Of a stretch of 64,000 bases of DNA, positions 5,463 to 63,708 are shown in pieces. The notes under the pieces are model-generated. The model was not told the DNA's origin. It did no database searches and worked only from the letters and a program-made list of their open reading frames with translations. The stretch is taken from positions 72,786 through 136,785 of the forward strand of contig CAZKPS010000001.1 in the NCBI GenBank assembly GCA_964554765.1, in the 5' to 3' direction. This DNA is from an uncultured Candidatus Saccharibacteria bacterium (lineage in GTDB: Bacteria > Patescibacteriota > Minisyncoccia > Phycocordibacterales > CAIRYW01). Position 1 is the stretch's first letter. Every line of letters starts with the position of its first letter. The translations under genes were made by a program, and so were the position numbers.

Positions 5463-5490
5463 TTGACAAAATAGAGTGATTTGCTACAAT
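5463..5490 (+). promoter_or_regulatory. Sigma-70-like promoter (TTGACA-16-TACAAT) for a leaderless TrmB-family gene
   Basis: The -10 element ends about 8 nt before the ATG at 5499. Confidence 0.35.
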
Positions 5491-6260
5491 TGGAGTATAT
5501 GAAGGAAAAACTCTTAAAGATAGGCCTCAACCCTACTGAAATAGACATCTACCTCACCCTCCTAGAGCATGGCAAACTTCTGCCTGCAAATATAAGTAAA
5601 TTAACAGGTATCAACCGAAGTACGGCATATGCAGCCTGCGCAGAATTGTTGAAGAAAAACATTATTACAGAAGATCTCTCCGGTAAAACCAAATACTTTG
5701 TAGCACTCCCTCCAGAAAACCTCAAAAATCAAGTAAACAAAAAACTCCGGGAAATCAAAATCGAGGAAAGCATTATTAACGAGCTTATTCCAGAACTCGA
5801 GTCACTCCCAAAGTCCGGTAATTATTCAATACCTAGGGTACAGGTAGTTAATAGTGATGATATAGAGGATTTTCTCTACAAAAACACACCAATATGGGAA
5901 AAGAGTATGCGAGATCTAAATGAGAAGACTTGGTGGGGTTTTCAAGATCATGCCTTTGTAGAAAGTGACAAATATCGAAAATGGATTCTCTGGTATTGGA
6001 ATCGATCATCTGAAGATATGGATTTAAAACTTTTTACAAATGAATCCAAGATTGAAGAAAGAATGAGAGAGAAGAATATAACGAGAAGAAAACTGAAACC
6101 GTGGACTGGAGATAATTTTAGCTCAACACAATGGATACTTGGTGAATATATAGTATCCATTATGACTCGAGGAAAGCTCCACTACCTCGTACAAATTCGA
6201 GACCGTGTACTCGCAGATAGTATGCGAAATATGACAAAAAATCTCTGGATTAAGGATTAA
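5481..6260 (+). CDS. TrmB-family transcriptional regulator (likely true start ATG 5499)
   Basis: The track ORF begins at a TTG. From the ATG it reads MKEKLLKIGLNPTEIDIYLTLLEHG...INRSTAY, a TrmB-type N-terminal wHTH followed by a C-terminal sensing-like domain. Confidence 0.75.
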   Translation: MLQLEYMKEKLLKIGLNPTEIDIYLTLLEHGKLLPANISKLTGINRSTAYAACAELLKKNIITEDLSGKTKYFVALPPENLKNQVNKKLREIKIEESIINELIPELESLPKSGNYSIPRVQVVNSDDIEDFLYKNTPIWEKSMRDLNEKTWWGFQDHAFVESDKYRKWILWYWNRSSEDMDLKLFTNESKIEERMREKNITRRKLKPWTGDNFSSTQWILGEYIVSIMTRGKLHYLVQIRDRVLADSMRNMTKNLWIKD

Positions 6261-23861: not shown

Positions 23862-24593
23862 TTATTTTCTAGAATTTTGCCACAGGTATGCAAATATCTT
23901 TCGGAATGCATCAGAAATAATTTTGTTCTTAAGAATCATTCCCATCGGCTCCTTTTTATCAAAAGCCACAATTGCAAGCTTATCGTCAAAAATATTAATC
24001 TCAATCCCCAGATCCTTGAACACATCGGAGAATCTCATATCACGAAGAAGCTCTTTAGCTCGAGTTTTATCTCTCTTGCCATATTTATCCATCGGAAGCA
24101 AACTCTTGACCGATACCCCAGCTTTCACTCGATACGGAAAATAATCTTCATCAAAAAAATCATTCATAGTCTCATATGCTTTTTGATAGTCAGTGATAGC
24201 GAGGATATGCTTCTCATTATTCTCTCTCCAAGTCTCACCGTAGAGTTTCTTTACCGCCTCTTTCCCTTCAAAATACCGAATACCCGAATGTAGTACTGGA
24301 TACTTTTTCTTTTTGAACACCCCTCTAAGTTTTTCCGATTCTTCCTCGAGAGATTTTATCTTTCTTTTAGACCACACCTCAAACTCCTCCTCCGAAATAG
24401 ATTGAAAAAGTGTCGTATCATTTTTCTTGATCTGACTTACAAGCCCCTTCTCTTCGAGAAGAGTGAGCGTGTGATAAAGTGCTGTTCGATTGAGACTCGT
24501 GTCCTTGGCGATCTGGGATACGGGAGATGGTCCGAAACTTGCGAGAGCTTCAAACACCGCTCTCTCCTTTTCACTCATGAGTTCGTTATTCAT
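23862..24593 (-). CDS. TrmB-family transcriptional regulator
   Basis: N-terminal wHTH (VFEALASFGPSPVSQIAKDTSLNRTALYHTLTLLEEKGLV), C-terminal domain. Confidence 0.7.
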   Translation of the reverse strand: MNNELMSEKERAVFEALASFGPSPVSQIAKDTSLNRTALYHTLTLLEEKGLVSQIKKNDTTLFQSISEEEFEVWSKRKIKSLEEESEKLRGVFKKKKYPVLHSGIRYFEGKEAVKKLYGETWRENNEKHILAITDYQKAYETMNDFFDEDYFPYRVKAGVSVKSLLPMDKYGKRDKTRAKELLRDMRFSDVFKDLGIEINIFDDKLAIVAFDKKEPMGMILKNKIISDAFRKIFAYLWQNSRK

Positions 24594-25959: not shown

Positions 25960-26660
25960 TCCGTGGTAGCATCTTTTAGAATTATTCTCACTGATGAATC
26001 AATTAGTACCTCCGTCGTATCAATAATCAATAACCCCTGATAGTTACCAGAAAGAATCAATTGTAAATCTGTACAAGCAAGCAATATTGCCTCCGCACCC
26101 CTTTGTTTTAATGCATTACAGATGTTGAACAATCGCTCTCTTTGAGTCCTATTTTTAATACCATTCAATATCTCAACTATTATCGCATTGATTACTCTCT
26201 GTTCACCTACAGTCGGCCGGACTAACTTCACATCACTCCTTTCAAAAGCATTTTGATAGATATTTGTATTAATAGTTGTCTCTGTTGCCAATATACCGAC
26301 AGTATTCATTTTCTTCTCTATCACACACCTCACAGTCTCTTCCAAAATACTCAAAAAAGGAATTCGTGTTTTCGCACGGATTTGTTCGATATATGTATGC
26401 AATGTATTACACGGAAGTATACCGAAATCAGCACCAGACTTTTCCAGAACTTTAGTTCCATCAATCAGGTATGGCAACATCTTTGAAACATTTTTGCCTT
26501 TTATAATTACATCTTCTTCAATTGAGGATGGGAATGGCAAATTATAAATGACAATAGGTGGATACTTTCCCTTTTCTTTTTTAATTTGTTTTACAACTGA
26601 CAGATATATTTTTGCTGTCGTGTCTGGCCCTACACCTCCTAATATTCCTATAGTTTTCAT
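25956..26660 (-). CDS. Aspartate/glutamate racemase family protein (Asp racemase-like)
   Basis: MKTIGILGGVGP N-terminal motif and a second conserved Cys region (LACTDL). Confidence 0.8.
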   Translation of the reverse strand: MKTIGILGGVGPDTTAKIYLSVVKQIKKEKGKYPPIVIYNLPFPSSIEEDVIIKGKNVSKMLPYLIDGTKVLEKSGADFGILPCNTLHTYIEQIRAKTRIPFLSILEETVRCVIEKKMNTVGILATETTINTNIYQNAFERSDVKLVRPTVGEQRVINAIIVEILNGIKNRTQRERLFNICNALKQRGAEAILLACTDLQLILSGNYQGLLIIDTTEVLIDSSVRIILKDATTD

Positions 26661-26741
26661 ATTGTTTAGTTTGATTAAATTAAGAGAGACACCCTGGTAC
26701 CATACAGTACCAGAGTAGTCTCTGAATAAACTGACACATCT

Positions 26742-27170
26742 CTATGATCGATACTCTCTATACCTGATTGCCTTCTGATGACCTTTGCACTTTAGGTCAA
26801 AGGTTTTATTGTGACCAAAAGGAGATGTATACACCTCAACATTTGGCAGCAATTCGTGCGCAGATGAAACAATCTGTTTCGAAAGTTCAAGAGCAACATC
26901 GGGTGGGGCATAGCTGTGGGATATGTGCCCAAAAGCAGCAATGACCAATCGCATTGCACCGAGCTCAAAGAAAAATTTTTGTACATCCTTGAGTAATCGT
27001 TTTTTCTGTTTTTCTCCATCACCTTCCTCTACGTGAAAGAGGACAACCAAACATTCCTCGACCAGGAGTGATGAATTTTCAGGTGATATGATTTCGGGTG
27101 CTTGAATATATTCCGAAGAACTAACCCAAGAAAAACCAAAGCTTAAAGCGTCAAAAAACTGTGCCTTCAT
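26742..27170 (-). CDS. Stand-alone archaeal-type ThrRS editing-domain / DTD2-like D-aminoacyl-tRNA deacylase homolog
   Basis: Starting from MKAQFF (142 aa), the C-terminus reads SPFGHNKTFDLKCKGHQKAI and the middle reads LVVLFHVEEGD...AAFGHISHS. This resembles the archaeal ThrRS N-terminal editing domain (...APFGYYKAFKISCKGHP...). The 5' extension in the track ORF is discounted. Confidence 0.55.
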   Translation of the reverse strand: MKAQFFDALSFGFSWVSSSEYIQAPEIISPENSSLLVEECLVVLFHVEEGDGEKQKKRLLKDVQKFFFELGAMRLVIAAFGHISHSYAPPDVALELSKQIVSSAHELLPNVEVYTSPFGHNKTFDLKCKGHQKAIRYREYRS

Positions 27171-27479
27171 AGTGATAAGTGTGTTTAAAAGAACATATTC
27201 TGTAGAGGTACAGAAATAAAAAACCCTCCGGATCGCTCCGAAGGGTTTTGTGCCTTTAACAAAGATATCATTCGCAATAAAGCAAAAAACCGTTCGGAGC
27301 GATAAAACCAACGGCTTGCCACCACTTTGTGTTCTGAATATTGAATTTGCTTATTTTTTGAATCATTTGATTTTGTGTTTTGATTTCCTTATATCCCTCA
27401 TTAGTATTCACCCTTCAAATCAAAACTTATTTATGATATTATCACCATACTAGTATAGTAATACATAAAAGTCAAATCT

Positions 27480-27782
27480 ATGAAAATAAATACAAATAAA
27501 AAGATTGGTGCGTGGCTAGATTCATATGCAGAAAATCATATGAGTCCAAAAGACCTCCTTACCAAAGTAACCGCAGAGTTCAATGAGAAGAATCTACCCT
27601 ATTTCTTCGCAAGCATCTTTACCGAGGATGAAATCAAGACATTCGCCAATCGTCTCCTTATAATCAAAAAACTCAAAGATGGAACATCACAACATGAAAT
27701 TGCATCAAAATTAAAAGTCGGGGTTACCACGGTCACCCGGGGCGCCCATGAGATTTCAAAAGGTAAATTTGATTTTATATAG
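27480..27782 (+). CDS. TrpR-like YerC/YecD family protein
   Basis: 100 aa. HEIASKLKVGVTTVTRGAHE matches the YerC/YecD HTH. Confidence 0.65.
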   Translation: MKINTNKKIGAWLDSYAENHMSPKDLLTKVTAEFNEKNLPYFFASIFTEDEIKTFANRLLIIKKLKDGTSQHEIASKLKVGVTTVTRGAHEISKGKFDFI

Positions 27783-27970
27783 CAAAATAGTTTCTAGAAT
27801 ATGTTCCAAAGACAAGTTCTACCTTGGTAATAAAAGGTTGTCGGTTTCTCTCAAAACCTCTAAAACAAAAAGAAAAACCGAGGGCAGAAAGTTTTTGAAG
27901 GAAATTTAAATAATTTATTTTTAAATAAAAAGACGGCAAGATTGCTCTTGCCGCCGTTGATAAACATTGC

Positions 27971-28732
27971 CTATTTCTTCTCCTCCTTCAGGATCCTGCT
28001 CCGTGAATTAGTGCGGTTACCTGCTGCGTCGTATGCCCACTCCTGCATAAGCAGACCGTTTTGCCCGTGATACAGGGTACAGACAGGCCGATTAAGTTCG
28101 TCGTAAATATTTGTCTGCAACGACGGGTCTTCAGTCCCAAGCTTCTTGTATTGAGCAAGATAGACACAGGCCCGAATATCTGAAATCACATGGAAGTATT
28201 GATCCGCCCAATGACGAAGAACATCGAGCCGAGCCTGTTCTGTATCCTCCACACCTTTAGGTAGATGAATAACTTCGGAAAGTGAGGGATGCACCGTTGT
28301 GGAAGACTGAGTCTGCAAGATTTCTCCCACAGTATTGTCATCTTTTTTGAATGCATCATTTATGACACCGTCCACATTGCTGTCATCCAAGATCCGAATC
28401 TCAGACCTCTTGCCAACCGGATAGTAATAAACACGGAAACGGTTTTGTTTCGTCTCGGCATCTTGCCACAGCCAGCAGGTGTAGTGCATACCATTCTGCT
28501 CGAAGACAGTTTCGAATCCGCCAACTGCTGGTGGGCGGTCACAGACCTTCTGAAGAATAACCTTGGAGCTAGGCAGCGCAGCGAGCTCGACTACAGCTTC
28601 AAAGGTGGGATGATTTTTGGCCACCACACGGAAAGTCTCAAGAGACACAGTGGGTTTGAGTTCCTCTGCGAAAGCAGAGAATTGAATGAAGAAAAGCCCG
28701 AGAAGGGCGAGGATGTTAAGGAGCGTTTTCAC
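27971..28732 (-). CDS. Secreted hypothetical protein on a G+C-rich island
   Basis: 253 aa with a signal peptide (MKTLLNILALLGLFFIQFSAFA). G+C content and codon usage are visibly higher than the flanks. The C-terminal WAYDAAGNRT resembles a single YD-repeat. Confidence 0.6.
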   Translation of the reverse strand: MKTLLNILALLGLFFIQFSAFAEELKPTVSLETFRVVAKNHPTFEAVVELAALPSSKVILQKVCDRPPAVGGFETVFEQNGMHYTCWLWQDAETKQNRFRVYYYPVGKRSEIRILDDSNVDGVINDAFKKDDNTVGEILQTQSSTTVHPSLSEVIHLPKGVEDTEQARLDVLRHWADQYFHVISDIRACVYLAQYKKLGTEDPSLQTNIYDELNRPVCTLYHGQNGLLMQEWAYDAAGNRTNSRSRILKEEKK

Positions 28733-28823
28733 GATTTGATATTCAGAGTTGAGGTGTTGTGGCGTGATTGCCGATTAGAATATAAACATAGATTTGTATT
28801 TTTGTCTATGTCTATGTTATCAC

Positions 28824-29087
28824 CTAAATCAACCCAGGATACTTTTGGATATCCTCTTTCTTTATTCTTAATGCATAGCACTCATCTACAATATCTCTTA
28901 CATAGAAAATCAAAGTGACGTATTCACCCTCATCTACATAATCTTGTGCATGTATAAGCCACTCCATTTGGGTCACAGCTTTTACAAAATCCTCTGGAGT
29001 TTGAAGTTCAGAGTCAGTATGTATATCTTGAGTCGGGAGCGAATCACGCTTAATCATAAATCTAAATTGTCTGTCGACTTGTTCCAT
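28824..29087 (-). CDS. Small hypothetical protein
   Basis: 87 aa acidic ORF upstream (same strand) of the secreted protein gene. No domain recognised. Confidence 0.35.
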   Translation of the reverse strand: MEQVDRQFRFMIKRDSLPTQDIHTDSELQTPEDFVKAVTQMEWLIHAQDYVDEGEYVTLIFYVRDIVDECYALRIKKEDIQKYPGLI

Positions 29088-29133
29088 TTTATTTTTTTAA
29101 CTAATTAACACAAGAATTACATTTACCAAAAAA

Positions 29134-29931
29134 TTATTTTTCCTCAGTTTTACCGTCCAACCTTTTCGCCTCTTTCCACGCTAGTTCAAAAAGTTTTTTG
29201 AGAGCATCAGCAATCTCTTCACTTTCTATAATAATACCAAGCTCCTCTCTCCAGGATGCAATCATCACTTTGTTATCATAAATTTCTATATCAGGAGAAA
29301 TGTCAAAAAGTTCTTTTGGTACAAGAGCGAGCTCTCGAGCCTCAAACGGATTCATCTTTTTTCGCTCAAGTGCCAACTCTGTTGCAGGAACAATACCCCG
29401 AACAAACAAACCCTTCGCCGCCCGTCTCCTGTAATAGTCAGGAAAATATCCTTTGAGAGTTTTGTGCATATCATCATAGGAAGCCATTGCCACAAAAGGT
29501 CCAGATGCAGTCAAGGTATCTTCATATACTTTTTTCATTCCCTCAATACCTTCATAAAATTTTACTTGTGGCCGAGTACCGACTTTATACATGGACTTAA
29601 GCTCGGGCAATAGTAATTGTGCATACCTATAGTCCTCTTCTTTTCGCTCAATATTGTGACGCAGAAATTTTAATATCTGTTCAGGATCCTCACATCGATA
29701 CTCTTGTTTTGGTTCTTTCCCAGAAATACTCACAAGACCCTTTTGTGCCAGGCTTGCCAAAATATCGTAGGCACCCGTTCTATTAATACCAGCCCTTTTT
29801 GCAATCTCACTTACTTTACCTTTTCCTATCCCTAAGAATGAAATGTAGAGCTCAGACTCTTTTTTGTTGAGACCCAGCTTTTGTAAAGCGTTTTGAAAAG
29901 TTCCACTCTGACCTTCTTCGTATTTTGTCAT
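29134..29931 (-). CDS. TrmB-family transcriptional regulator (close paralog of 62920..63708)
   Basis: wHTH (SEIAKRAGINRTGAYDILASLAQKGLVSISGKEPKQEYR). The C-terminal IYDNKVMIASWREELGIIIESEEIADALKKLFELAW is shared with the paralog. Confidence 0.75.
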   Translation of the reverse strand: MTKYEEGQSGTFQNALQKLGLNKKESELYISFLGIGKGKVSEIAKRAGINRTGAYDILASLAQKGLVSISGKEPKQEYRCEDPEQILKFLRHNIERKEEDYRYAQLLLPELKSMYKVGTRPQVKFYEGIEGMKKVYEDTLTASGPFVAMASYDDMHKTLKGYFPDYYRRRAAKGLFVRGIVPATELALERKKMNPFEARELALVPKELFDISPDIEIYDNKVMIASWREELGIIIESEEIADALKKLFELAWKEAKRLDGKTEEK

Positions 29932-30105
29932 AAATGCATGCTACCAAAAATCATATTTTGTGTCAAAAAAATATACACAATTTGTTTATATAATACAAAA
30001 TATTATTATTTTATAATACTATAATAGTTTTACTATTTATGACGATTATTTACACTTATTGACTTGTATTGTTAAATCTACCTAGATCAAAGCACAATCC
30101 GTCCT

Positions 30106-30720
30106 TTGACGCCAAATCAAAGTCAACAACCTATGAACATCCCCTCCATAATCTTTTGGATTCTTCCCTTTGTAATCGTCAAGATTGCAATCAAGAAACC
30201 AAAATGGGCCCAGAGAATGGTTGCCTTCGAGGTAATCACTGCACTGCTCGCAATGCTACTCTACGAGATCAGCGATACTCCGGAACGAATTCCTGATCCA
30301 TTTCATCTCCCAATGAGATGGATTTCGGAATGGGTGATACATCCCACATTACTCACAATCCCCTTAGTACTGCTACTTGGATTCATTCGAGTGATACTAA
30401 AGATTATTTTAAAATCAATCAATTGGACTCAGGGTGACAAAATACCCATCTGGGTGAGATGGACTGCTTCTGTGGTATTTACACTCTGGGTTATTGATTT
30501 AATTGTATCGATTGCTCATTGTGGAATATCCGAGGGAATGAAATCTTACACAGATTCGCTACTCTGGATTCCAGGTCGATATCCTTGGACCTATTGGTTT
30601 GTGCTTCCTTCTGAGGCAATAATCTTACTTCGGATGAAGAACGAGCAAGGTATGTGGCTTCGGCCACAGAGGTATGTTGAGTTCCTTATTCGGATTGTTG
30701 AGTGGCCTATCAAAAAGTAG
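30106..30720 (+). CDS. Polytopic membrane protein, hypothetical (likely start ATG 30133)
   Basis: The track ORF starts at a TTG. From MNIPSIIFWILPFVIV there are 5-6 predicted TM helices. Confidence 0.5.
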   Translation: MTPNQSQQPMNIPSIIFWILPFVIVKIAIKKPKWAQRMVAFEVITALLAMLLYEISDTPERIPDPFHLPMRWISEWVIHPTLLTIPLVLLLGFIRVILKIILKSINWTQGDKIPIWVRWTASVVFTLWVIDLIVSIAHCGISEGMKSYTDSLLWIPGRYPWTYWFVLPSEAIILLRMKNEQGMWLRPQRYVEFLIRIVEWPIKK

Positions 30721-30731
30721 TCACCGTACTT

Positions 30732-30767
30732 GTCGCCAGACTTTTGTCTGGCGACTTTTTATATTTT
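30732..30767 (+). terminator. Rho-independent terminator
   Basis: Perfect 10-bp stem gtcgccagac-tttt-gtctggcgac followed by TTTTTATATTTT. Confidence 0.7.
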
Positions 30768-31338
30768 AATTTCCATCTTTTGGCTTTAATCTTTGCCTTT
30801 TGCTTTTTGACTTTTGATTTATTCTCACATACTCCCTCTCAGTCACAATGTCTTTCGGATTTGTTCGATCGAGAAATACAATTCCATTTAGATGATCGTA
30901 TTCATGCTGGAAAATTCTTGCAGGAAAGTCTTCCAGAGTAAGCCTGAGCTTCTCCCCTTCTCGAGTTGTAAATTCAACATCGATGCTTTTATGCCTCGGC
31001 ACAAGTCCTCGAATACCGGGTATTGAGAGGCACCCCTCGTAGCTTTTGATTATTCTCTTTGATGCAGAAACAATTTTTGGATTAATAACAGCAATAGGTC
31101 CGAGCTTTGGAATATTTTTTCTTTTCTTTGTTGTTCGGGACCAGAGAATAAATACTCGAAGACCCTCATTCACCTGAGGTGCAGCGATGCCTACCCCACT
31201 ACTTAGATCACAGGTCTTGATTAGATCATCAATAAAATTTTGAAACTCCTTCGTTTTCAACGCCTTGCCCGAAACAACCTTCGCACGAGTCCGAAGTATC
31301 TTGTCCCCTAGTTCTACTATCTTTAGTTTTTTACTCAT
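30766..31338 (-). CDS. def: Peptide deformylase
   Basis: GVGIAAPQV, EGCLS and QHEYDHLNG motifs. Confidence 0.9.
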   Translation of the reverse strand: MSKKLKIVELGDKILRTRAKVVSGKALKTKEFQNFIDDLIKTCDLSSGVGIAAPQVNEGLRVFILWSRTTKKRKNIPKLGPIAVINPKIVSASKRIIKSYEGCLSIPGIRGLVPRHKSIDVEFTTREGEKLRLTLEDFPARIFQHEYDHLNGIVFLDRTNPKDIVTEREYVRINQKSKSKRQRLKPKDGN

Positions 31339-31443: not shown

Positions 31444-32241
31444 TTATTCGTATTTCGTTCCTGTCCAACTCAATTCAAAAATCATCTTCATAAGTCCGTG
31501 AATTGTTGGATCTTCGATAATGACTCCTGTTAACTTTTCTTTACCGAGGTTTATGATCGAAACATTTTTTTCACCATAGATTGTAATCTCGGCCTTGTAG
31601 GGGAATTTCTCTGCCGGGATGAATCGTGCATTAGGCATCAATTCTTCTTTGAAATCACCGTACGATCTCTCAACAAAGGTCTTGTCTATGTTTGTATCTG
31701 GGAAAATAACTCTTGAACTAATTCCTTTCTGTTTCTTTGTCTTAATATAATTTCTAAAAAAGTCTCTCGGCACCTGTTCCTCCACCTCTTGAACATTCGC
31801 CCACGCGAGCATTTCATATGGCTTCGATACATTAATATGTGTTGCATAAATATCAAGCACACCCTCAATACCTTCATAATACGTAATCTTTGGTTTATCG
31901 GCCGCTCCCAATAACCCCTCGAGATCAGGAAGAATCCTCTGGACATTCTCAATCTCATCTTGGATGATAGACATTTTGGATTTGGCATACCGCACGAGCT
32001 TGGTTGGACTCTCGAGTTGATAGAATTGTTTATTCTTCTTTTCTATCTCATTCACTACCCCCTTTACTGACATTTGGGTGAGCAACATATAGACCGTACT
32101 TCGATTAAGTCCAGTGTATTCTGCAATCTTTGACGGATATGCTCCTCCGAGCTCAAGGAGTGCTACATATATTAAAGACTCTTTGTCAGAGAGACCTGAC
32201 TTTTGGAGCTTTTTGAGGAGATTTTCGTGTTTTATGCTCAT
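31444..32241 (-). CDS. TrmB-family transcriptional regulator
   Basis: wHTH (IYVALLELGGAYPSKIAEYTGLNRSTVYMLL) plus a C-terminal domain. Confidence 0.75.
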   Translation of the reverse strand: MSIKHENLLKKLQKSGLSDKESLIYVALLELGGAYPSKIAEYTGLNRSTVYMLLTQMSVKGVVNEIEKKNKQFYQLESPTKLVRYAKSKMSIIQDEIENVQRILPDLEGLLGAADKPKITYYEGIEGVLDIYATHINVSKPYEMLAWANVQEVEEQVPRDFFRNYIKTKKQKGISSRVIFPDTNIDKTFVERSYGDFKEELMPNARFIPAEKFPYKAEITIYGEKNVSIINLGKEKLTGVIIEDPTIHGLMKMIFELSWTGTKYE

Positions 32242-32363
32242 ATTTATATAATATTACACCACGATATTTTGTCAATTTTTACTAACAAAATATCACTACA
32301 ATCCAAAAACCTATATTTATTAATGTACTAGCTTGTTTAATTGATATTCTCTACTCACAATAA

Positions 32364-33962
32364 TTGACAATGTGTGATAATTCTTGCGGAAAGTATATTG
32401 AAATCAACAAACACACAATTATGAACAAAAGATTTGTACTTATTAACCCAGAAGCGATGGTTCTAGAAAACACGGGTGACGACCAAACCCAATATCGAGT
32501 ATGGCCGCATAATGGTCTGCTCTATGTAGGAACAGCTGCCGAAAAAGCCGGCTACTCTGTTGCCCTATGGGACGAACTTGTTCAAGGCAAGGTCTCGCTC
32601 GAAAACATCGTCGAACCTGGTGACATTGTCGGGTTTAGTCTTGTTATTACTGGTATTGAACGCGGAGTGTTGCTTGCCAAGGAAGCCAAGAAACTAGGAG
32701 CCAGGTATTGTATAGCCGGCAACGACTCTGCAATATTTAGATCTTCAAAAATTCTGGCTTTGGCTGGCAAGCCGATAGATGCCGTGTTCACGGGTGACAG
32801 TTTGAGAGCAATCACGTCATTTTTCAGTCAGATAGATTCAGTACCGATGAGTGATTTAAAAATCAGTGGAGTAGAAACGAATCCCAACCATACCAGCCGT
32901 TCAAATGTTCTGGAATCCCTCAAGTTAGAAGCCGATTCAAGAAGGGGTGGACAAAGAGATGATGGTGACGTATTCATCGTGCCTAATCTGAATCTTTTTG
33001 ATCAGGCCTATTGGAATACCGTGTGGAGGAACTACAACGAGAACTTTGGACACAAACACCCAAAAGGTAAACCTGTCCGAAACACTCTTGCACTCTTTTC
33101 ACACGGTTGCACCCGTCCAAGAGGTACGGAAGTGTGCAGCTACTGTACAATCGCGGAGGTCGCTAACATTCGTTTTCCAAGTGATGCACATGTCACAGAA
33201 TTGGCAGAGACATATGCTCGTTTTGGCATTAATACTGTCTTTAACGCTGCAGACTCTTCATTTGAGATGATTCCCGTCATCAACACACTGAAGAAGCATA
33301 ATATAAAGTGGGACGCGCTCACGATCTACGCTCGGTCCAGAGGTATCGCAATGGAGGGTAACCAGAAACTAATGGAAAAATGGTTGTCAGTGACAAGGGA
33401 TAGATTACTTCTTAATGTGGGCATGGATTCTGGGGATGATGATATTTTGAAGAAAGGAATTACTAAATCATCAGCAGGTAAAAACGATTCGAGGGTGGAG
33501 GAGAATAAGGAGGCAACAAGGAGGATAAAACAATTCGGTGCGCACTTACACTGTTCACTTATCTTTGGTAGTCCAGGGGAGACCTTGGCTTCGTGCCGTA
33601 GGTCGATGGAGTATCTTGAGTGGATGATTGATGTGTTGGGAGACCAACTCGATCAAGCTGAAGCAGATAGATACTGGCTTAACTTCGGATCTCCTGCAAG
33701 TCGAGTGTTCTTTGATTATGATTATGCAGTCTTGCTTGCCTCATATGCGGGTAAGACAATTAATCGCGATGAATGGCACAGACATTTTGTGTTACATGCT
33801 GATGAACTTGTGGTTCCACCAGAAGTTCAAAAGTCTTGGTATAGATTTTTCACCCGAATCGATATAGAAACGGCTGACGAATTCAATGCCATGGTAGCAC
33901 ATAGAATGCTCAGGCATACAGGGAGCATACGCAGTCGCGCGTTTATGCCCCTTGCGACGTAG
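32364..33962 (+). CDS. B12-binding-domain-like / radical SAM superfamily protein with a non-canonical CX8CX2C motif (start probably ATG 32421)
   Basis: Rossmann-like N-domain, then CTRPRGTEVCSYC, then radical-SAM-type motifs LNVGMDSGDDDIL (GxESG-like) and IFGSPGET. G+C-rich relative to the flanks. Confidence 0.55.
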   Translation: MTMCDNSCGKYIEINKHTIMNKRFVLINPEAMVLENTGDDQTQYRVWPHNGLLYVGTAAEKAGYSVALWDELVQGKVSLENIVEPGDIVGFSLVITGIERGVLLAKEAKKLGARYCIAGNDSAIFRSSKILALAGKPIDAVFTGDSLRAITSFFSQIDSVPMSDLKISGVETNPNHTSRSNVLESLKLEADSRRGGQRDDGDVFIVPNLNLFDQAYWNTVWRNYNENFGHKHPKGKPVRNTLALFSHGCTRPRGTEVCSYCTIAEVANIRFPSDAHVTELAETYARFGINTVFNAADSSFEMIPVINTLKKHNIKWDALTIYARSRGIAMEGNQKLMEKWLSVTRDRLLLNVGMDSGDDDILKKGITKSSAGKNDSRVEENKEATRRIKQFGAHLHCSLIFGSPGETLASCRRSMEYLEWMIDVLGDQLDQAEADRYWLNFGSPASRVFFDYDYAVLLASYAGKTINRDEWHRHFVLHADELVVPPEVQKSWYRFFTRIDIETADEFNAMVAHRMLRHTGSIRSRAFMPLAT

Positions 33963-33977
33963 ATCTTCAATAATCAA

Positions 33978-34014
33978 CAGCTGGTTTCGCTTTGCGAAAC
34001 CAGCTTTTTAATTG
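33978..34014 (+). terminator. Rho-independent terminator
   Basis: Hairpin cagctggtttcgc-ttt-gcgaaaccagct followed by TTTTTT. Confidence 0.7.
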
Positions 34015-34134: not shown

Positions 34135-34710
34135 ATGTCTTATCTTATACCGACCGTCATTGAGAAAACCAACCTCGGTGAGCGAGCTTACGATATCTAC
34201 TCACGACTCCTCAAAGAAAATATTATTTTCCTTGGGGGACCTATCGATGATGCTGTGGCCAACACTATTATTGCTCAGCTTCTCTTTCTTCAATCAGAAG
34301 ACCCAAAAAAAGATATCACTCTCTATGTGAATTCACCTGGGGGACACGTGACTGCAGGTCTCGCAATTATTGATACAATGAACAATATCAAAAATGATGT
34401 CTCAACTGTCTGTGTAGGACTCGCGGCATCTATGGGTGCGGTAATACTTGCATCAGGGGCAAAAGGCAAGAGATACGCACTCCCAAACAGTGAAATAATG
34501 ATCCACCAACCACACGGAGGAGCAGAAGGACAGGCATCAGATATTGAAATCAGTGCAAAGCGGATCATTAAGAATAGAGATATACTGAACAAAATCCTTG
34601 CAAAGACTACAGGACAACCACTATCAAAGATCGAAAAAGATGTAGACCGAGATTTCTTCCTGGGGTCAGATGAGGCTAAGAAATATGGAATTATAGACAA
34701 AGTCTTATAA
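34135..34710 (+). CDS. clpP: ATP-dependent Clp protease proteolytic subunit
   Basis: 191 aa with catalytic Ser (GLAASMGA), His (IHQPHGG) and Asp context. Confidence 0.95.
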
Positions 34711-42332: not shown

Positions 42333-43499
42333 CTATTCGATTCCTTTCATACCAAGCGGTGCAATGTAAGCCTCCGAGTCAAAACGGAGTTTGCTGACCT
42401 TGTGTTTACCCGACTCTATCTTAGAGGCGAAGGAGACGGGTTGACCCGGCTCCAGAATAGGGAATTCATCTCCCTTGCAGAGTTGACGACCTTGCGGATC
42501 AACAATCTGCTTGAAATGAACGAAGTGGAGATTACCATCGTTGCCGATCACGTTGCCGTAACCACAAAGAAGGTTATACCATGCCACCTGGCCCACCATT
42601 GCGCACCCGTTAGCAACCGCTTCTGGTGTCGCCTCGAGATGATTTGAGATTGGGAACCATCCCGCCACTTCACAGTCACTCAATCGTGCCGAGCGATTAT
42701 TGGTGACAGCGTATTCCACAAGCTGAGCAAACATGCCGGGGAAGATCTTGGCATAATCTGCACCCGGATAAGCATCGTCCGAACGAGTCGGGATGATCGT
42801 ACTGCAAACACCGGAGTACCAATGGGATGTGACACCCATCTGCTTCGCCAGAGCTTCACGAGTACGAACCACTTGACCTTGGTAGATACTCTGCACGCCG
42901 GCATAAAAGTAACCATTGCGAGTAATGAGACTCACTTGTACTTGATGGAACTCTCCAGAAGGCTTCAAGAAAACCAAATCCACATTGTCTTGCCCTCGCA
43001 CCCGAGTATGGGGACGATAATCTTTCCAGGCAACAGGTACGACGAGCGAAGGTACGGGGTCAGCCGTAACATCACTCATCTTACCTTCTTTGAAATGAAA
43101 GATTTTGACCCCATTTTCAGCGAGCCGATAAATGTGGAGCACGATATCCTTGACCTGACCTGAACCCTCGCCAGTGTAGTTGAGCCTTGCTAGGCGATGA
43201 GTGACGCTGCCAGTTTCTTCCTCCGAGAACTGAGCACTTGACCGATTTGTTCCGATGCGGAGGCTACCGAAGCCCTTCGAGGAAATTTTGAGTTCCCCTT
43301 CTTCGAAAGCCCATAGCTGGGAGTTTCTTTTCAGAAGTTCAGTTGGCAACGGTTTTTTTGCGAGAGCGTAAGCCTCACAAAGAACGTCGAACAGGGGGGT
43401 GACAAGTTGATTGCCACCTGTAGCGGATGTGGTAGTAAGCATGATCTTAAGATTGGGTCGTTGTCTTGTTTTTGTTGCGGAGCAACCATTGAAAATCAA
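42333..43499 (-). CDS. Hypothetical protein on a G+C-rich island
   Basis: 388-aa ORF. G+C content is clearly above the flanks. No domain recognised. The true start may be MLTTTSATGG. Confidence 0.5.
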   Translation of the reverse strand: MIFNGCSATKTRQRPNLKIMLTTTSATGGNQLVTPLFDVLCEAYALAKKPLPTELLKRNSQLWAFEEGELKISSKGFGSLRIGTNRSSAQFSEEETGSVTHRLARLNYTGEGSGQVKDIVLHIYRLAENGVKIFHFKEGKMSDVTADPVPSLVVPVAWKDYRPHTRVRGQDNVDLVFLKPSGEFHQVQVSLITRNGYFYAGVQSIYQGQVVRTREALAKQMGVTSHWYSGVCSTIIPTRSDDAYPGADYAKIFPGMFAQLVEYAVTNNRSARLSDCEVAGWFPISNHLEATPEAVANGCAMVGQVAWYNLLCGYGNVIGNDGNLHFVHFKQIVDPQGRQLCKGDEFPILEPGQPVSFASKIESGKHKVSKLRFDSEAYIAPLGMKGIE

Positions 43500-45046: not shown

Positions 45047-45781
45047 CTACTCACTTTTCTCCCAGAGCATCTTCCAAACCGATCTGAGACTCTCGGCAAT
45101 TGATTGATTTTTGATGATGATTCCCATCTCGTCTTTAGTTGAAAGCATCGCCACTTTATCGTCGAAGATCATAATTTCATTATTTATCCTGTGGTTTTCT
45201 GGTATCAGACGCACCTCTCTCAAAACTTCCTCCCCTTCTCTCTTATCCTGTTCCCCCACTTCACCACCTGGAGCGAATCCTCGAACCCTAATCCCCTTCT
45301 TAACCCTCTGCCTTACATAATTATCTACATACTCCCCACCAAAATACTCCTTCACCTCTTTGGAATTTGTAAAAGTCAAAATCTCTCCCTTTGATAATAA
45401 ACTTTCTTCATAGATTTGCTTAAGACCCTCCCTTGTACTGACAGTTGTGATTCTTGGCCTTTTCTCATTATTTTTATTTTTGACCAAGTCAACTAGACTC
45501 TCCTCGAGTATCCCGAGCCCCTCTTTATGTTTCTTTATCAGAATCTGAGGATTGAGCGCCCCAAAGTACATAACACCCTTCATCTTAAACCCTGACACAA
45601 TACCTCTACTCGAAAGGCGCTTCAGGACCTCAAAATTAGTAATCCGATTTAGCTTTGATTCTCTAGCAATCTGACTATTTGTTGCCGAACCGAGCCCAAG
45701 GAGTGCTAAATAAACCGCCGCCTCGTTCTCCGAGAATCCTAATCCACCAAGTTCTTTCCTGATATCAATCTGCATATTCAA
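45047..45781 (-). CDS. TrmB-family transcriptional regulator
   Basis: wHTH (AAVYLALLGLGSATNSQIARESKLNRITNFEVL). The C-terminal MGIIIKNQSIAESLRSVWKMLWE is shared with the family. Confidence 0.7.
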   Translation of the reverse strand: MNMQIDIRKELGGLGFSENEAAVYLALLGLGSATNSQIARESKLNRITNFEVLKRLSSRGIVSGFKMKGVMYFGALNPQILIKKHKEGLGILEESLVDLVKNKNNEKRPRITTVSTREGLKQIYEESLLSKGEILTFTNSKEVKEYFGGEYVDNYVRQRVKKGIRVRGFAPGGEVGEQDKREGEEVLREVRLIPENHRINNEIMIFDDKVAMLSTKDEMGIIIKNQSIAESLRSVWKMLWEKSE

Positions 45782-52177: not shown

Positions 52178-52220
52178 TACTACATACTACATACTACATA
52201 CTACTTACTACTTCTTACTA
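52178..52220. repeat. Heptamer microsatellite, (ATACTAC)x4 followed by degenerate copies, immediately 3' of the xer stop
   Basis: Tandem atactac atactac atactac atactac ttactac ttcttac. Coordinates may be off by 1 nt. Confidence 0.55.
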
Positions 52221-53125
52221 TGAAATTTTTTATGCACTTCTCGAAGATGTGAGTCAGTGACGTGGGTATAGATTTGAGTAGTTGAGATATTTGCGTGTCC
52301 CAAAAGCATCTGTACAGAACGTAAGTCAGCACCATTGCGGAGCAAATCAGTCGCAAAACAGTGTCGTATCACGTGGGGAGTTACTTTTTTGGATACCCCT
52401 GCTTTGATTGCATAATATCTGATTAGTCTTTGAATTGAGCGGGGAGTCAGGGCTCCGTCTTCTTTTTTTGCTCTTTCATTGCCCACTTTTACAAAGAGAG
52501 CACCGTCGAGGTCTTTACGGAGATTCAAATATGTTTTCACCATTGATTTTGCTTCATCGGAAAGGAAAACAACACGCACCTTACCACCTTTACCTCTGAT
52601 AGAGAGCTCATCCTGACGAAGATCAATATCCCGATCAAGTGAACAAAGCTCGGACACTCGAAGTCCAGTAGAGAAGAGGAGTTCCAAAATAGCCTTACCA
52701 CGAGCCTTTTTTTCTTGATTCTCCTCATTATTTGGCGCATCAAAGATTCTCCGGAGTTCATCTGCAGAGATGAGGTCGAGTGATCTCTCGCCGGTTTTCG
52801 CAAGCTCTATATAGTCTGCCGGTAGGGTAGTAATCCCTCGTTTTGCTATGTATTTGAGAAATGCGCGGAGAGCAATGAGATAATAGTTTTGAGTTCTTTT
52901 CTTGAGAGTTTCATTGAATTTACGATTGTTGCCTGTTACCTGTCGGTTAAGCCAGAGACGATATTCACGCATTATTTCTGGAGTAATATCTTTTGGATCG
53001 GTCTTTTTAAAGAATTCGAGAAACCGAGTAAGGTAATGATCATAATTCTCAACAGTCTTGAGGCTGCGACCTTTTTCGATTTCGATGTGTTCAAGGAATT
53101 GTCTTTTGAGGGTGAGTAGATCCAT
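52208..53125 (-). CDS. Tyrosine recombinase, XerC/XerD family
   Basis: 305 aa with an N-terminal SAM-like domain and the catalytic motifs RHCFAT and LGHANISTTQIYTHV. Confidence 0.85.
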   Translation of the reverse strand: MDLLTLKRQFLEHIEIEKGRSLKTVENYDHYLTRFLEFFKKTDPKDITPEIMREYRLWLNRQVTGNNRKFNETLKKRTQNYYLIALRAFLKYIAKRGITTLPADYIELAKTGERSLDLISADELRRIFDAPNNEENQEKKARGKAILELLFSTGLRVSELCSLDRDIDLRQDELSIRGKGGKVRVVFLSDEAKSMVKTYLNLRKDLDGALFVKVGNERAKKEDGALTPRSIQRLIRYYAIKAGVSKKVTPHVIRHCFATDLLRNGADLRSVQMLLGHANISTTQIYTHVTDSHLREVHKKFHSKK

Positions 53126-56740: not shown

Positions 56741-57442
56741 TTGTCGGACCACCAGAAGCTTAAAATGGTGCGTCGGACCGAAAGTCCTTCGACACGAGGA
56801 ACCCGAAAGGTTTCAGTCTTCTTTCACATCACACAATACTTGAGCCGACACTCAAAAAATCAGACTATGAAACTCAACTATTCGCCAGCCCTTTTTTGGG
56901 AACTCTACAGAGCAGGATTGTGCACAAATCTCATCTTGCAGATCAAGAAAACTCTTGGTATTGCATTTGACTTGAGTCACCTGAAGACAGCAGAAGGTAC
57001 TTTATGCTTCCAGCGAGCAGCTATTTGGACCGGACTAGGCATCAGTGTCACATTCATTGTCTTCGCTATGACAGTGGGAGTACAGAACGGTGCATGGGCT
57101 TCACTATTCATTTCTCTGTTCATTTTGGGTTTCTGCTCCTTGATTGACCCCGACGACAGACTCAAGGATATGAGAAAGGTCGAGGCTCTCGCCAAGAAAT
57201 TCTTCGACACTTTCTGTGATGGCAGAATCGATACTGAAGCAGCCAGTAACCCAGTCGAATTCATAAAGAGCGGACTTTCTCTCAAAGCAGGAAAGATAGT
57301 GGATGCAACTCCTGATAAAACCCACGCGCTCCAAACAGAATTCTCTCGCTTGGTGAACGTGGCCATGGAACTTGGTCTTGGTGATGCAGATCAGATTTAC
57401 AGAGATGCATATACTCCTGCCAAAGATGCCATGAGACCTTAA
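56741..57442 (+). CDS. Hypothetical membrane protein (likely start MKLNYSPALF at ~56867)
   Basis: Two predicted TM helices. The 5' part of the track ORF is G+C-rich and may be a leader rather than coding. Confidence 0.4.
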   Translation: MSDHQKLKMVRRTESPSTRGTRKVSVFFHITQYLSRHSKNQTMKLNYSPALFWELYRAGLCTNLILQIKKTLGIAFDLSHLKTAEGTLCFQRAAIWTGLGISVTFIVFAMTVGVQNGAWASLFISLFILGFCSLIDPDDRLKDMRKVEALAKKFFDTFCDGRIDTEAASNPVEFIKSGLSLKAGKIVDATPDKTHALQTEFSRLVNVAMELGLGDADQIYRDAYTPAKDAMRP

Positions 57443-60719: not shown

Positions 60720-61505
60720 ATGGAAAATGTATTAAAACAATTGGGTTTAAATGAAAAGGAGATTTTAGTCTATAAATCACTCTTGGAAAGAGGTGCTTCG
60801 ACATCATCTTCACTTGCAAATGTTATTGACTTGCCACGACAGACTATCTACTCAATCCTTCAAAAACTATGTGATGAAGGAGTAATTGAGAAAGGCCCGT
60901 GGAAAGGGGCACACAAATTCATTGCCGACCCAACCAATCTTTCATCAATAGTGAGATTTAGGCAGAAAAAACTTACCCAAATAGGAAATACAATTGAGGA
61001 ATTGATGCCAGAACTTCTCACAATAACAAAACTCAGAGCAAACCGAAAACCTTCGGTTCAGTATTATGATGGGGTATTTGGGTTGAAGCGTCTTTTTGAT
61101 GAGATCATTGAACAATACAAAAGAAAAGAAGATACTATGTTTCGAGGATTCGGAATTAATTATTTTGAAAATACAGACATACAAGAAATTTTAAATGATT
61201 TTGTTAGAGAGAGATATAAATATGGTATAAAAACTCACTTACTTATTGGTAAAGGGGGGAATGATTTTGGCATTACGATAGATGGATCAACAACTTTAGG
61301 AAGAGAAGTCCGTAGTATAAATATGGAAGCACAAAATGCTGGCATCTACCTAGTAGGAGATCGTATTTATTTATTTTCTTACGAGGATGATGTGGGAATT
61401 ATGATTGAACAGAAACTTATTGCACAATTATTAAAAAATATTTTCGATTTGGAGTGGGATAAGGCAAAAGAGCTTGATAAAGAAATAAGAAGATTAGAGA
61501 AGTAA
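60720..61505 (+). CDS. TrmB-family transcriptional regulator
   Basis: wHTH (ILVYKSLLERGASTSSSLANVIDLPRQTIYSILQKL). The C-terminal ...WDKAKELDKEIRRLEK is identical to 62920..63708. Confidence 0.7.
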   Translation: MENVLKQLGLNEKEILVYKSLLERGASTSSSLANVIDLPRQTIYSILQKLCDEGVIEKGPWKGAHKFIADPTNLSSIVRFRQKKLTQIGNTIEELMPELLTITKLRANRKPSVQYYDGVFGLKRLFDEIIEQYKRKEDTMFRGFGINYFENTDIQEILNDFVRERYKYGIKTHLLIGKGGNDFGITIDGSTTLGREVRSINMEAQNAGIYLVGDRIYLFSYEDDVGIMIEQKLIAQLLKNIFDLEWDKAKELDKEIRRLEK

Positions 61506-62919: not shown

Positions 62920-63708
62920 ATGGAAAACAAAGGGAATTTCGTTGGTGCCCTCATCAATATGGGTCTCCCAGAAAAGGAGGCTGCAGTTTATGTATCTCTC
63001 CTCGGGCTGGGACTTGCAACAGTAACCGAAATTGCCAATAAATCAGGAATCAATCGAACAACTGTCTACGATATCCTTTCTTCACTATCCCAGAAAGGAC
63101 TTGTGAGCATTTCGGGTAAAGAACCAAAGCAAGAATACAGATCTGAAAATCCTGATAAGCTACTAACATATCTCAAAAACGAACTTGAGCGAAAGGCTCA
63201 AAGTGTGAGGTATGCAGAGCTCATGCTTCCGGAACTTAAATCAATACACAAAATAGGTGAAAGACCTCGAATCAAATTTTATGAAGGTGAGGAAGGTTTG
63301 CGAGAAGTATACGAAGACACTCTCACATCAGAAGAAACTATTTTGGCATATGCCGCAGTGGATGATGTGAACAAAGGGATTGCAAATTATTTCCCCAAAT
63401 ACTATAAAAGACGCGCTGCAAAAAACATTCCTATCCGTGCTATATTTCCCGATACTCCCGTGGCAAGAGAACGATCGGACCTTGATAAAGAGGAGAGGCG
63501 GGAAAGTCTTTTGGTGCCATTTGAAAAATACAGCTTTACTCCCGAAATAAATATCTATGACAACAAAGTTATGATCGCATCGTGGAGAGAAAAGCTTGGA
63601 ATAATTATTGAAAGCGCCGAGATTGCAGATGCCATGAAAAAAATATTTGAACTCTCATGGGATAAGGCAAAAGAGCTTGATAAAGAAATAAGAAGATTAG
63701 AGAAGTAA
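62920..63708 (+). CDS. TrmB-family transcriptional regulator (close paralog of 29134..29931)
   Basis: wHTH (AAVYVSLLGLGLATVTEIANKSGINRTTVYDILSSLSQKGLVSISGKEPKQEYR). The C-terminus is identical to 60720..61505. Confidence 0.75.
   Translation: MENKGNFVGALINMGLPEKEAAVYVSLLGLGLATVTEIANKSGINRTTVYDILSSLSQKGLVSISGKEPKQEYRSENPDKLLTYLKNELERKAQSVRYAELMLPELKSIHKIGERPRIKFYEGEEGLREVYEDTLTSEETILAYAAVDDVNKGIANYFPKYYKRRAAKNIPIRAIFPDTPVARERSDLDKEERRESLLVPFEKYSFTPEINIYDNKVMIASWREKLGIIIESAEIADAMKKIFELSWDKAKELDKEIRRLEK

Follow-up and report, generated by a model that had tools for sequence, protein, structure and literature searches.

A small radical SAM protein family of Patescibacteria with a CX8CX2C cysteine triad inside a class-B-like architecture

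Radical S-adenosylmethionine (SAM) enzymes that carry a B12-binding-type domain are a major reservoir of unexplored chemistry. Here we describe a gene of this kind on a 64-kb stretch of DNA (64,000 nucleotides (nt) of contig CAZKPS010000001.1 from an uncultured Candidatus Saccharibacteria bacterium; the whole stretch is called the window in the following). As judged from sequence and structure comparison, its product belongs to a small, previously undescribed radical SAM family found only in Patescibacteria (candidate phyla radiation, CPR) genomes. The architecture is that of a known kind of enzyme, while the lineage-restricted family itself appears to be new: neither the family nor its place within the class B architecture was contained in any curated model searched, and we found no paper on it. 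Our preferred explanation, to which we give a probability of roughly three in four, is a stand-alone and active radical SAM enzyme of class-B-like architecture. It would be a clear natural case in which a CX8CX2C cluster loop has become fixed within this architecture. The gene and the parts of its product are located as follows:

32364..33962, plus strand: radical SAM gene as maximal open reading frame (ORF), 532 amino acids (aa) from a TTG, 100% identical to the database protein P0001
32421..33962, plus strand: likeliest coding sequence, 513 aa, with the ATG of M20 as the probable start
32421..32840, plus strand: N-terminal Rossmann-like (B12-binding-fold) domain with five beta strands and the loops WPH(N/L)G, WDE, GxSLVxTG, AGNDS and DAVFT
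32841..33080, plus strand: linker or insert with the family-specific motifs RSN and W..W.NY..FGHKH, taken from alignments
33081..33680, plus strand: radical SAM (beta/alpha)6 core, from the PF04055 match at aa 246-417, the secondary structure of the model and fold matches
33681..33959, plus strand: helical C-terminal domain with a W(Y)xxFT motif, from model and alignment
33108..33146, plus strand: cysteine triad CTRPRGTEVCSYC (C249, C258, C261; aa 249-261), CX8CX2C, predicted ligands of the SAM-binding [4Fe-4S] cluster
33420..33440, plus strand: GMDSGDD, aa 353-359, counterpart of GxESG on beta4, from the alignment with distant relatives
33564..33584, plus strand: FGSPGET, aa 401-407, GxIxGxxE-type motif on beta5, from the same alignment
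33594..33596, plus strand: C411 (numbered along the ORF from the TTG at 32364), fourth family-invariant cysteine (107/107), in the first turn of helix alpha5

Pfam matched the window protein itself to Radical_SAM with E=8e-4 (aa 246-417) and to B12-binding with E=0.05, both below the gathering score. Across the family, PF04055 matched 54 of 62 members and PF02310 matched 36. An AlphaFold2 model built from 107 homologues reached a predicted local distance difference test score (pLDDT) of 93.5 and a predicted template modelling score (pTM) of 0.92. Counted from M20, it consists of the Rossmann-like domain (residues 1-140), a linker, six beta/alpha units (221-417) and a helical C-terminal domain. 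When the fold was searched, many radical SAM structures were matched, with AprD4 as the best of them. The core is a partial (beta/alpha)6 TIM barrel with SAM-site motifs on beta2, beta4 and beta5, and the fusion of a PF02310-type Rossmann-like domain to its N-terminal side constitutes the class B architecture. An earlier interpretation of the window made from its letters alone (the sequence-only reading) had proposed just this combination of a B12-binding-like Rossmann domain and a radical SAM core, which the model, the fold matches and the family-wide Pfam matches bear out. Neither domain nor fold searches pointed to a TIM barrel outside the radical SAM enzymes.

The distinguishing trait of the family is the spacing of its cysteines. 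Relative to CX3CX2C, the triad CTRPRGTEVCSYC contains an insertion of five residues. This CX8CX2C motif was exact in all 107 aligned homologues, which are 47-78% identical to the window protein, and CX3CX2C was absent from the window protein as well as from every homologue, such that a canonical motif elsewhere in the protein was rejected. The spacing is thus a fixed trait of the family and not an artefact of the alignment, in agreement with the sequence-only reading, which had singled out the triad. In the model the triad is placed on the loop that joins beta1 (221-224) to alpha1 (255-268, both counted from M20), the canonical position of the SAM cluster. A tyrosine precedes the last cysteine (CSYC), as in canonical radical SAM enzymes, and the triad aligned column for column with the cysteine triads of 98 distant relatives. 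For RadicalSAM.org clusters, first spacers from CX4 to CX11, including CX7CX2C and CX8CX2C, have been noted and functional enzymes with longer spacers are known (PMC9477430), so that the idea of a stretched loop is not new. Judged from alignment and model, the stretched loop probably represents a structural variant of the normal cluster site rather than a different cofactor site.

The window protein has eight cysteines (positions 4, 8, 116, 249, 258, 261, 397 and 411), and the conserved ones in the family are C249, C258, C261 and C411 only. For C411 we considered a role as fourth cluster ligand. When the window protein was aligned with the 98 distant relatives, 89 of the 99 sequences had Leu, Ile or Met at the equivalent position, which makes such a role unlikely and argues for a residue that is probably buried in its helix. 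The GxESG-like and FGSPGET motifs of the sequence-only reading were both recovered, the former as GMDSGDD. On beta4, G334 (counted from M20) was present in 99/99 sequences, position 336 was always E or D, and S337 was found in 79/99 (about 80%). On beta5, conservation including the distant relatives amounted to 96% for G383 and 98% for E387.

The homologues were obtained from a search of 5.8 billion proteins, which provided 169 relatives, among them the 107 that were aligned. A profile search against 1.84 billion cluster representatives revealed a tight core family, for which about 20 representatives exceeded 250 bits, and then a sharp fall to about 870 distant proteins of 450-520 aa that scored at most about 150 bits. 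The latter matched the profile over their whole length with E values of 1e-39 to 1e-10. They match PF02310 and PF04055 properly, whereas their matches to curated B12-type radical SAM families all stay below threshold. Nearly all of them share a stretched first spacer, CX6-9CX2C, with 6 residues in 39 representatives, 7 in 15, 8 in 42 (including some representatives of the core family) and 9 in 11. Common to the whole wider clade are the three cysteines, the glycine preceding the first of them, D278, Y303, G334, E/D336-S337-G338 (GxE/DSG), S379, G383 and E387 (GxPGE), as expected of an active SAM site, together with a C-terminal W..xF(T/C). The Patescibacteria family differs by its own invariants WPH, FGHKH, GAHLH and C411 and, in most members, by an extra N-terminal domain; conservation of the histidines in the linker region is likewise restricted to it. 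As a guess, the wider clade might correspond to one of the variant-motif clusters of RadicalSAM.org, such as Megacluster-2-5 (CX7CX2C). The contigs of three distant relatives (P0142, P0149 and P0151) are too short to show gene context. The window gene thereby links to a much larger uncharacterised metagenomic CX6-9CX2C clade, whose members would be missed by motif mining for CX3CX2C.

The family is clearly rare, and its distribution is patchy. When 185,579 species were scanned with a single genome for each, 37 loci were obtained, a lower bound since the scan rests on two peptide patterns. Every named homologue, 36 of the 37 genome loci and both matches of P0064 come from Patescibacteria metagenome-assembled genomes (MAGs) or bear automated labels on CPR-like contigs. 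Credible labels are Patescibacteria MAGs of the Paceibacteria, Parcubacteria, Microgenomates, Uhr-, Kerfeld-, Moran-, Doudna-, Buchanan- and Zambryskiibacteria. One Paceibacteria MAG (JBGAUV01) holds two paralogues of the family on different contigs (L018 and L044), which are not sisters in the tree. Most members are about 615 aa long and carry an additional N-terminal segment of about 100 residues. In the model of P0010 (m9e72388b0813, pLDDT 90.9) its residues 1-85 form a small alpha/beta domain that is followed by a disordered linker (86-103). The extension opens with a hydrophobic, signal-peptide-like stretch, yet an alpha/beta fold is predicted for it (pLDDT 76-94); it might serve to associate the protein with a membrane or to recruit the substrate. 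The domain is missing from a few short forms, among them the window protein and its close relative. For the window gene there is no room for it, since only 122-179 nt separate the gene from the start of the neighbouring TrmB-family gene described below. In one MAG, a second radical SAM protein of 497 aa with a canonical CNLKCGPC motif (L007:10180-11673) is encoded 2.4 kb downstream of the family gene; it is unrelated, in that neither the family nor its distant relatives showed similarity to it.

These properties suggest the following scheme. C249, C258 and C261, presented by a beta1-alpha1 loop that is longer by five residues, would bind a [4Fe-4S] cluster, the free iron of which would chelate SAM. 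Reductive cleavage of SAM would provide a 5'-deoxyadenosyl radical, which would then take a hydrogen atom from the substrate. The Rossmann-like N-terminal domain would form a second binding site, either for cobalamin, as in TsrM and TokK, or for the substrate or another ligand, as in AprD4. That it binds something we would take as sure, because few parts of the protein are conserved as strongly as its loops. The gene would be transcribed from its own promoter-like site to its terminator and be controlled by a divergent TrmB-type regulator. The elements on which this last step is based are:

31444..32241, minus strand: TrmB-family regulator, divergent from the radical SAM gene (PF01978, E=4e-13)
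32263..32272 and 32285..32294, no strand assigned: perfect 10-bp inverted repeat GATATTTTGT-N12-ACAAAATATC in the divergent promoter region
32354..32381, plus strand: promoter-like site CTCACA-N16-(TG)TGATAAT with extended -10, a consensus match only, within a block conserved in the related contig L001
33979..34013, plus strand: intrinsic-terminator-like element 17 nt past the stop codon, composed of a strong hairpin (33979-34005; 12-bp stem with 7 G-C pairs) and a T run behind it

The promoter-like block falls inside the first 20 codons of the ORF started at TTG, and between the window and L001 it is kept at the nucleotide level in a pattern unlike that of coding sequence. The closest homologue P0002 begins at the Met equivalent to M20, and the database copy P0001 at M3. 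From these observations, the ATG at 32421 is the likelier start. Together with the promoter-like site, the terminator-like hairpin behind the stop codon makes the gene look monocistronic. No riboswitch was found upstream of it; Rfam detected four tRNAs in the window and nothing else.

The gene stands between the TrmB-family regulator and clpP (34135-34710), as the sequence-only reading had placed it. The product of the latter is 92% identical to a protein that matches CLP_protease (PF00574). To survey gene context in 40 loci, we clustered every ORF up to 8 kb away from the radical SAM gene. TrmB-family regulators were the sole recurrent neighbour, and a conserved enzymatic pathway partner did not appear in the loci examined. 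The impression of the sequence-only reading that there were no obvious pathway partners thus holds for enzymes; the recurrent TrmB had escaped it. A divergent TrmB gene is located upstream in 7 of the 40 loci, at less than 150 bp in the window, L001, L027, L029, L037 and L041 and at 465 bp in L032. A neighbour-joining tree places these loci in three or four separate clades, and most of them encode short forms. For L027 and L029 (radical SAM proteins 75% identical) the flanks share TrmB only, and so do those of L041 and L032 (63% identical). That just this pair of genes is shared in both comparisons supports a two-gene TrmB-radical SAM module. The inverted repeat in the intergenic region overlaps a promoter-like site of the TrmB gene (TTGACA-16-TATTAT, minus strand), its 24-nt core is identical in L001, and we consider it a candidate TrmB operator. 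In this genome and several others the radical SAM gene is probably under the control of the divergent TrmB-type regulator.

Several observations weigh against the picture drawn so far. Single-sequence and family-profile searches of the PDB sequences returned chance matches only. The best NCBIfam matches of the window protein, namely a ladderane lipid protein, the Sden_1168 and PhpK P-methylases, HpnJ, HpnR and MJ_1487, reached 20-24 bits to B12-type radical SAM families that have cut-offs of 250-650. With respect to a cobalamin-free N-terminal domain, the fold score of AprD4 is just slightly above that of the cobalamin-dependent TsrM and MgmA. With respect to regulation, TrmB proteins adjacent to the gene in different clades are merely 25-35% identical to each other. 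The window furthermore contains seven TrmB (PF01978) paralogues, i.e. about one gene in nine, such that the adjacency seen here could be due to chance.

Among the characterised systems AprD4 (PDB 6FD2; NF033070), a radical SAM 1,2-diol dehydratase of apramycin biosynthesis, is nearest in fold. Its identity to the window protein is 14-16%, and the window protein gave no match to NF033070 at E<=1. AprD4 works with the reductase AprD3 from within an aminoglycoside gene cluster, whereas our gene has no enzymatic neighbour; reductase or biosynthetic neighbours were absent from every locus examined. We know of no stretched loop in AprD4. The cobalamin-dependent class B enzymes used for comparison (TsrM 6WTE, MgmA 9CCB, TokK 7KDX/7KDY, CysS 9N1B/9N1D and OxsB 5UL2) combine PF02310 and PF04055. 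Class B enzymes are described with the canonical CXXXCXXC (PMC12931638), in contrast to the CX8CX2C found throughout the Patescibacteria family. The curated class B models score far below threshold here, and the family is restricted to Patescibacteria. From MiaB and RimO the protein differs at both ends. Its N-terminal domain lacks conserved auxiliary-cluster cysteines, of which UPF0004 in MiaB/RimO has three, and its C-terminal domain is helical rather than a TRAM beta barrel. NCBIfam gave no match to the methylthiotransferase (MTTase) families. Many homologues are named YgiQ/UPF0313 at JGI. The domains specific to those proteins are Radical_SAM_N and DUF3362; they are absent here, where Pfam finds PF04055 and PF02310 only, and the name appears to be a generic COG1032 label.

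The most probable of the alternatives is a cobalamin-dependent class B enzyme, for instance a methyltransferase, that would carry scavenged cobalamin on its Rossmann domain and use it to transfer methyl groups to unactivated carbon or phosphorus centres in lipids, glycans, RNA or proteins. We regard it as a possibility to be taken seriously, albeit the less probable one. It would account for the class B architecture with the strong fold matches to TsrM, MgmA, CysS and TokK, for the fact that the weak best NCBIfam matches are all B12-type radical SAM families and for the PF02310 matches in 36 of 62 members. The high conservation of the Rossmann loops is also what a cofactor site would show. Several points speak against it, none of them decisive. 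The best structural match AprD4 is cobalamin-free (PMC12931638), the GG(P)H of typical B12-type radical SAM enzymes is replaced by AGNDS, a cobalamin riboswitch was found neither in the window nor beside the gene, and none of the 41 window ORFs scanned matched a cobalamin-related Pfam family. AprD4- and ArsL-type enzymes illustrate that Rossmann-like domains need not bind cobalamin (PMC12931638). Patescibacteria have a minimal metabolism, the source for this being itself ambiguous on cobalamin (PMC8672522). Given AprD4 as best fold match, the replaced GG(P)H, the lack of a corrinoid signal nearby and the minimal host metabolism, we slightly favour an AprD4-like use of the N-terminal domain without cobalamin.

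The TrmB family is known for sugar sensing. Based on the recurring TrmB neighbour together with the match to AprD4, a carbohydrate-type substrate is a reasonable first guess, which we make with low confidence. More generally, since the metabolism of Patescibacteria is minimal, a conserved and self-contained enzyme likely acts on something central to their lifestyle, such as the envelope, scavenged molecules or RNA.

We further asked how the gene came to its present position, for which its base composition is informative. The sequence-only reading had placed it on a G+C-rich island and suggested horizontal acquisition. The gene is indeed richer in G+C than its surroundings (0.445 versus 0.390 for the window). 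Its G+C content at third codon positions (GC3) is 0.43 compared to 0.36 ± 0.07 for 13 neighbouring ORFs, two of which equal or exceed it, i.e. the excess is about one standard deviation. As the elevation is modest and ends at the borders of the gene, the term island overstates it. The same excess recurs across the family: 36 of 37 loci have a radical SAM gene with more G+C than the flanking DNA, the average difference being 8 points (Wilcoxon p=2e-7), and for GC3 the mean excess amounts to +0.12. Among all ORFs of at least 150 aa, the radical SAM gene ranks highest in GC3 in 20 of 35 loci. The G+C content of the gene follows that of the flanks with a slope of 0.81 (r 0.77) and a constant offset. 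That the bias is family-wide and tracks the host argues for a gene-intrinsic cause rather than repeated fresh arrivals; we regard the G+C and GC3 excess as a property of the gene family. Translational selection was rejected as its origin, since all synonymous codon classes are enriched, not just C over U. Long antisense ORFs of up to 545 codons occur in G+C-rich homologues. Their lengths are mostly within the expectation from synonymous-codon shuffles and no overlapping antisense gene is present in the window, such that this origin was likewise set aside.

Gene order provides a second view on the history of the gene. The order def, TrmB, radical SAM gene, clpP, RNase Y and HU is common to the window and the contig of P0002. 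Between the two, amino acid identities are 100% for HU, 96% for RNase Y, 94% for TrmB, 92% for ClpP, 78% for Def, 77-78% for the radical SAM protein and 74% for the HhH-GPD glycosylase. The shared synteny and a divergence like that of def and the glycosylase argue for vertical inheritance since the genomes split. The gene behaves as a resident one under moderate constraint, and horizontal acquisition is not supported as a recent event in this genome. We would therefore view the window gene as a resident, vertically inherited and probably TrmB-regulated accessory enzyme and not as a fresh island.

At the level of the family the picture is more dynamic. In L015:5167-7076 and L020:7605-9513, two stretches that extend from about 70 nt before the start exactly to the stop codon are 92% identical at the nucleotide level, while their flanks lack detectable similarity. 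Such a pattern is the signature of a recent transfer or relocation confined to the gene, and some copies of the family have clearly moved as single genes. Exchange of individual genes among Patescibacteria has been described (PMC12455944). Taken together, the excess of the family in G+C and GC3 and the relocation of single genes form an unexplained evolutionary pattern. A speculative extension of our interpretation, which we consider rather unlikely, is that of a mobile Patescibacteria accessory enzyme with an undescribed cobalamin-free radical reaction on a carbohydrate-like or host-derived substrate sensed by the TrmB-type partner. The G+C and GC3 excess would in that case stem from unusual selection or mutation linked to the way in which the gene is kept or passed between episymbionts.

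For the window copy itself, we consider recent acquisition from a foreign source as part of a G+C-rich island improbable. The raised G+C content, the single-gene relocation between L015 and L020, the rarity and patchiness of the family (37 loci in 185,579 species genomes) and the documented transfer of individual genes among Patescibacteria (PMC12455944) would fit such an origin. It is opposed by the TrmB-radical SAM-clpP-RNase Y-HU synteny with the closest relative at def- and glycosylase-like divergence, by a G+C excess that recurs in 36 of 37 loci and scales with the host, and by the small GC3 excess of the window gene of about one standard deviation. Mobility genes do not adjoin the gene. 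Relatives of the family were not found among IMG/VR viral contigs, and a plasmid search gave one distant match only (Rhizobium, 25% identical).

Returning to the enzyme, we consider it still less probable that the protein is a degenerate, non-catalytic radical SAM homologue, the loop of which would no longer bind a SAM-cleaving cluster and which would instead act structurally, in regulation or in some other redox function. The non-canonical motif, the Pfam scores below threshold and the loss, in the window copy, of the N-terminal domain that most members have could be understood in this way. Against it, the cysteine triad, the preceding aromatic residue and the beta2, beta4 and beta5 motifs are invariant or nearly so at 40-60% identity and in the distant relatives too, the core of the model has very high confidence throughout, and functional enzymes with longer spacers exist, with RadicalSAM.org covering CX4 to CX11 (PMC9477430).

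Least probable of all is an anti-phage defence or phage-derived gene, e.g. a viperin-like producer of modified nucleotides: the single-gene unit, patchy distribution, changing contexts and atypical composition would be explained along with the mobility, but PADLOC and PHROGs gave no significant match, IMG/VR viral contigs held no relative, BFVD returned generic COG1032-type fold matches only, with nothing specific from any of the four, and housekeeping genes, not defence islands, surround the gene.

Beyond the radical SAM gene, the number of TrmB genes in the window is a striking expansion for such a genome; we found no paper on a TrmB expansion in Patescibacteria. The paralogues are, the divergent neighbour included:

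5481-6260, plus strand: TrmB paralogue
23862-24593, minus strand: TrmB paralogue
29134-29931, minus strand: TrmB paralogue
31444-32241, minus strand: TrmB paralogue next to the radical SAM gene
45047-45781, minus strand: TrmB paralogue
60720-61505, plus strand: TrmB paralogue
62920-63708, plus strand: TrmB paralogue

The region from the HhH-GPD glycosylase gene to the TrmB-radical SAM pair is variable (window 25960-30770 versus L001:2550-5010). In the window these approximately 4.8 kb hold a second TrmB gene, a racemase, a protein with a threonyl-tRNA synthetase (ThrRS) editing domain and ORFans, while in L001 def and TrmB are separated by a 517-aa ORFan and a 60-aa ORF instead. The editing-domain protein (26742-27311, minus strand) stands alone and matches the archaea-specific threonyl-tRNA synthetase editing domain (PF08915, E 4e-20). 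Three ORFs of the window are richer in G+C than the radical SAM gene: 27971-28732 (minus strand, 0.486), 42333-43499 (minus strand, 0.498) and 56741-57442 (plus strand, 0.459). They had no convincing Pfam match apart from one weak match to a cold-shock domain and may be compositionally atypical ORFans. A tyrosine recombinase of XerC/D or integrase type (Phage_integrase with a SAM-like N-terminal domain) is encoded at 52208-53125 on the minus strand, about 18 kb from the radical SAM gene.

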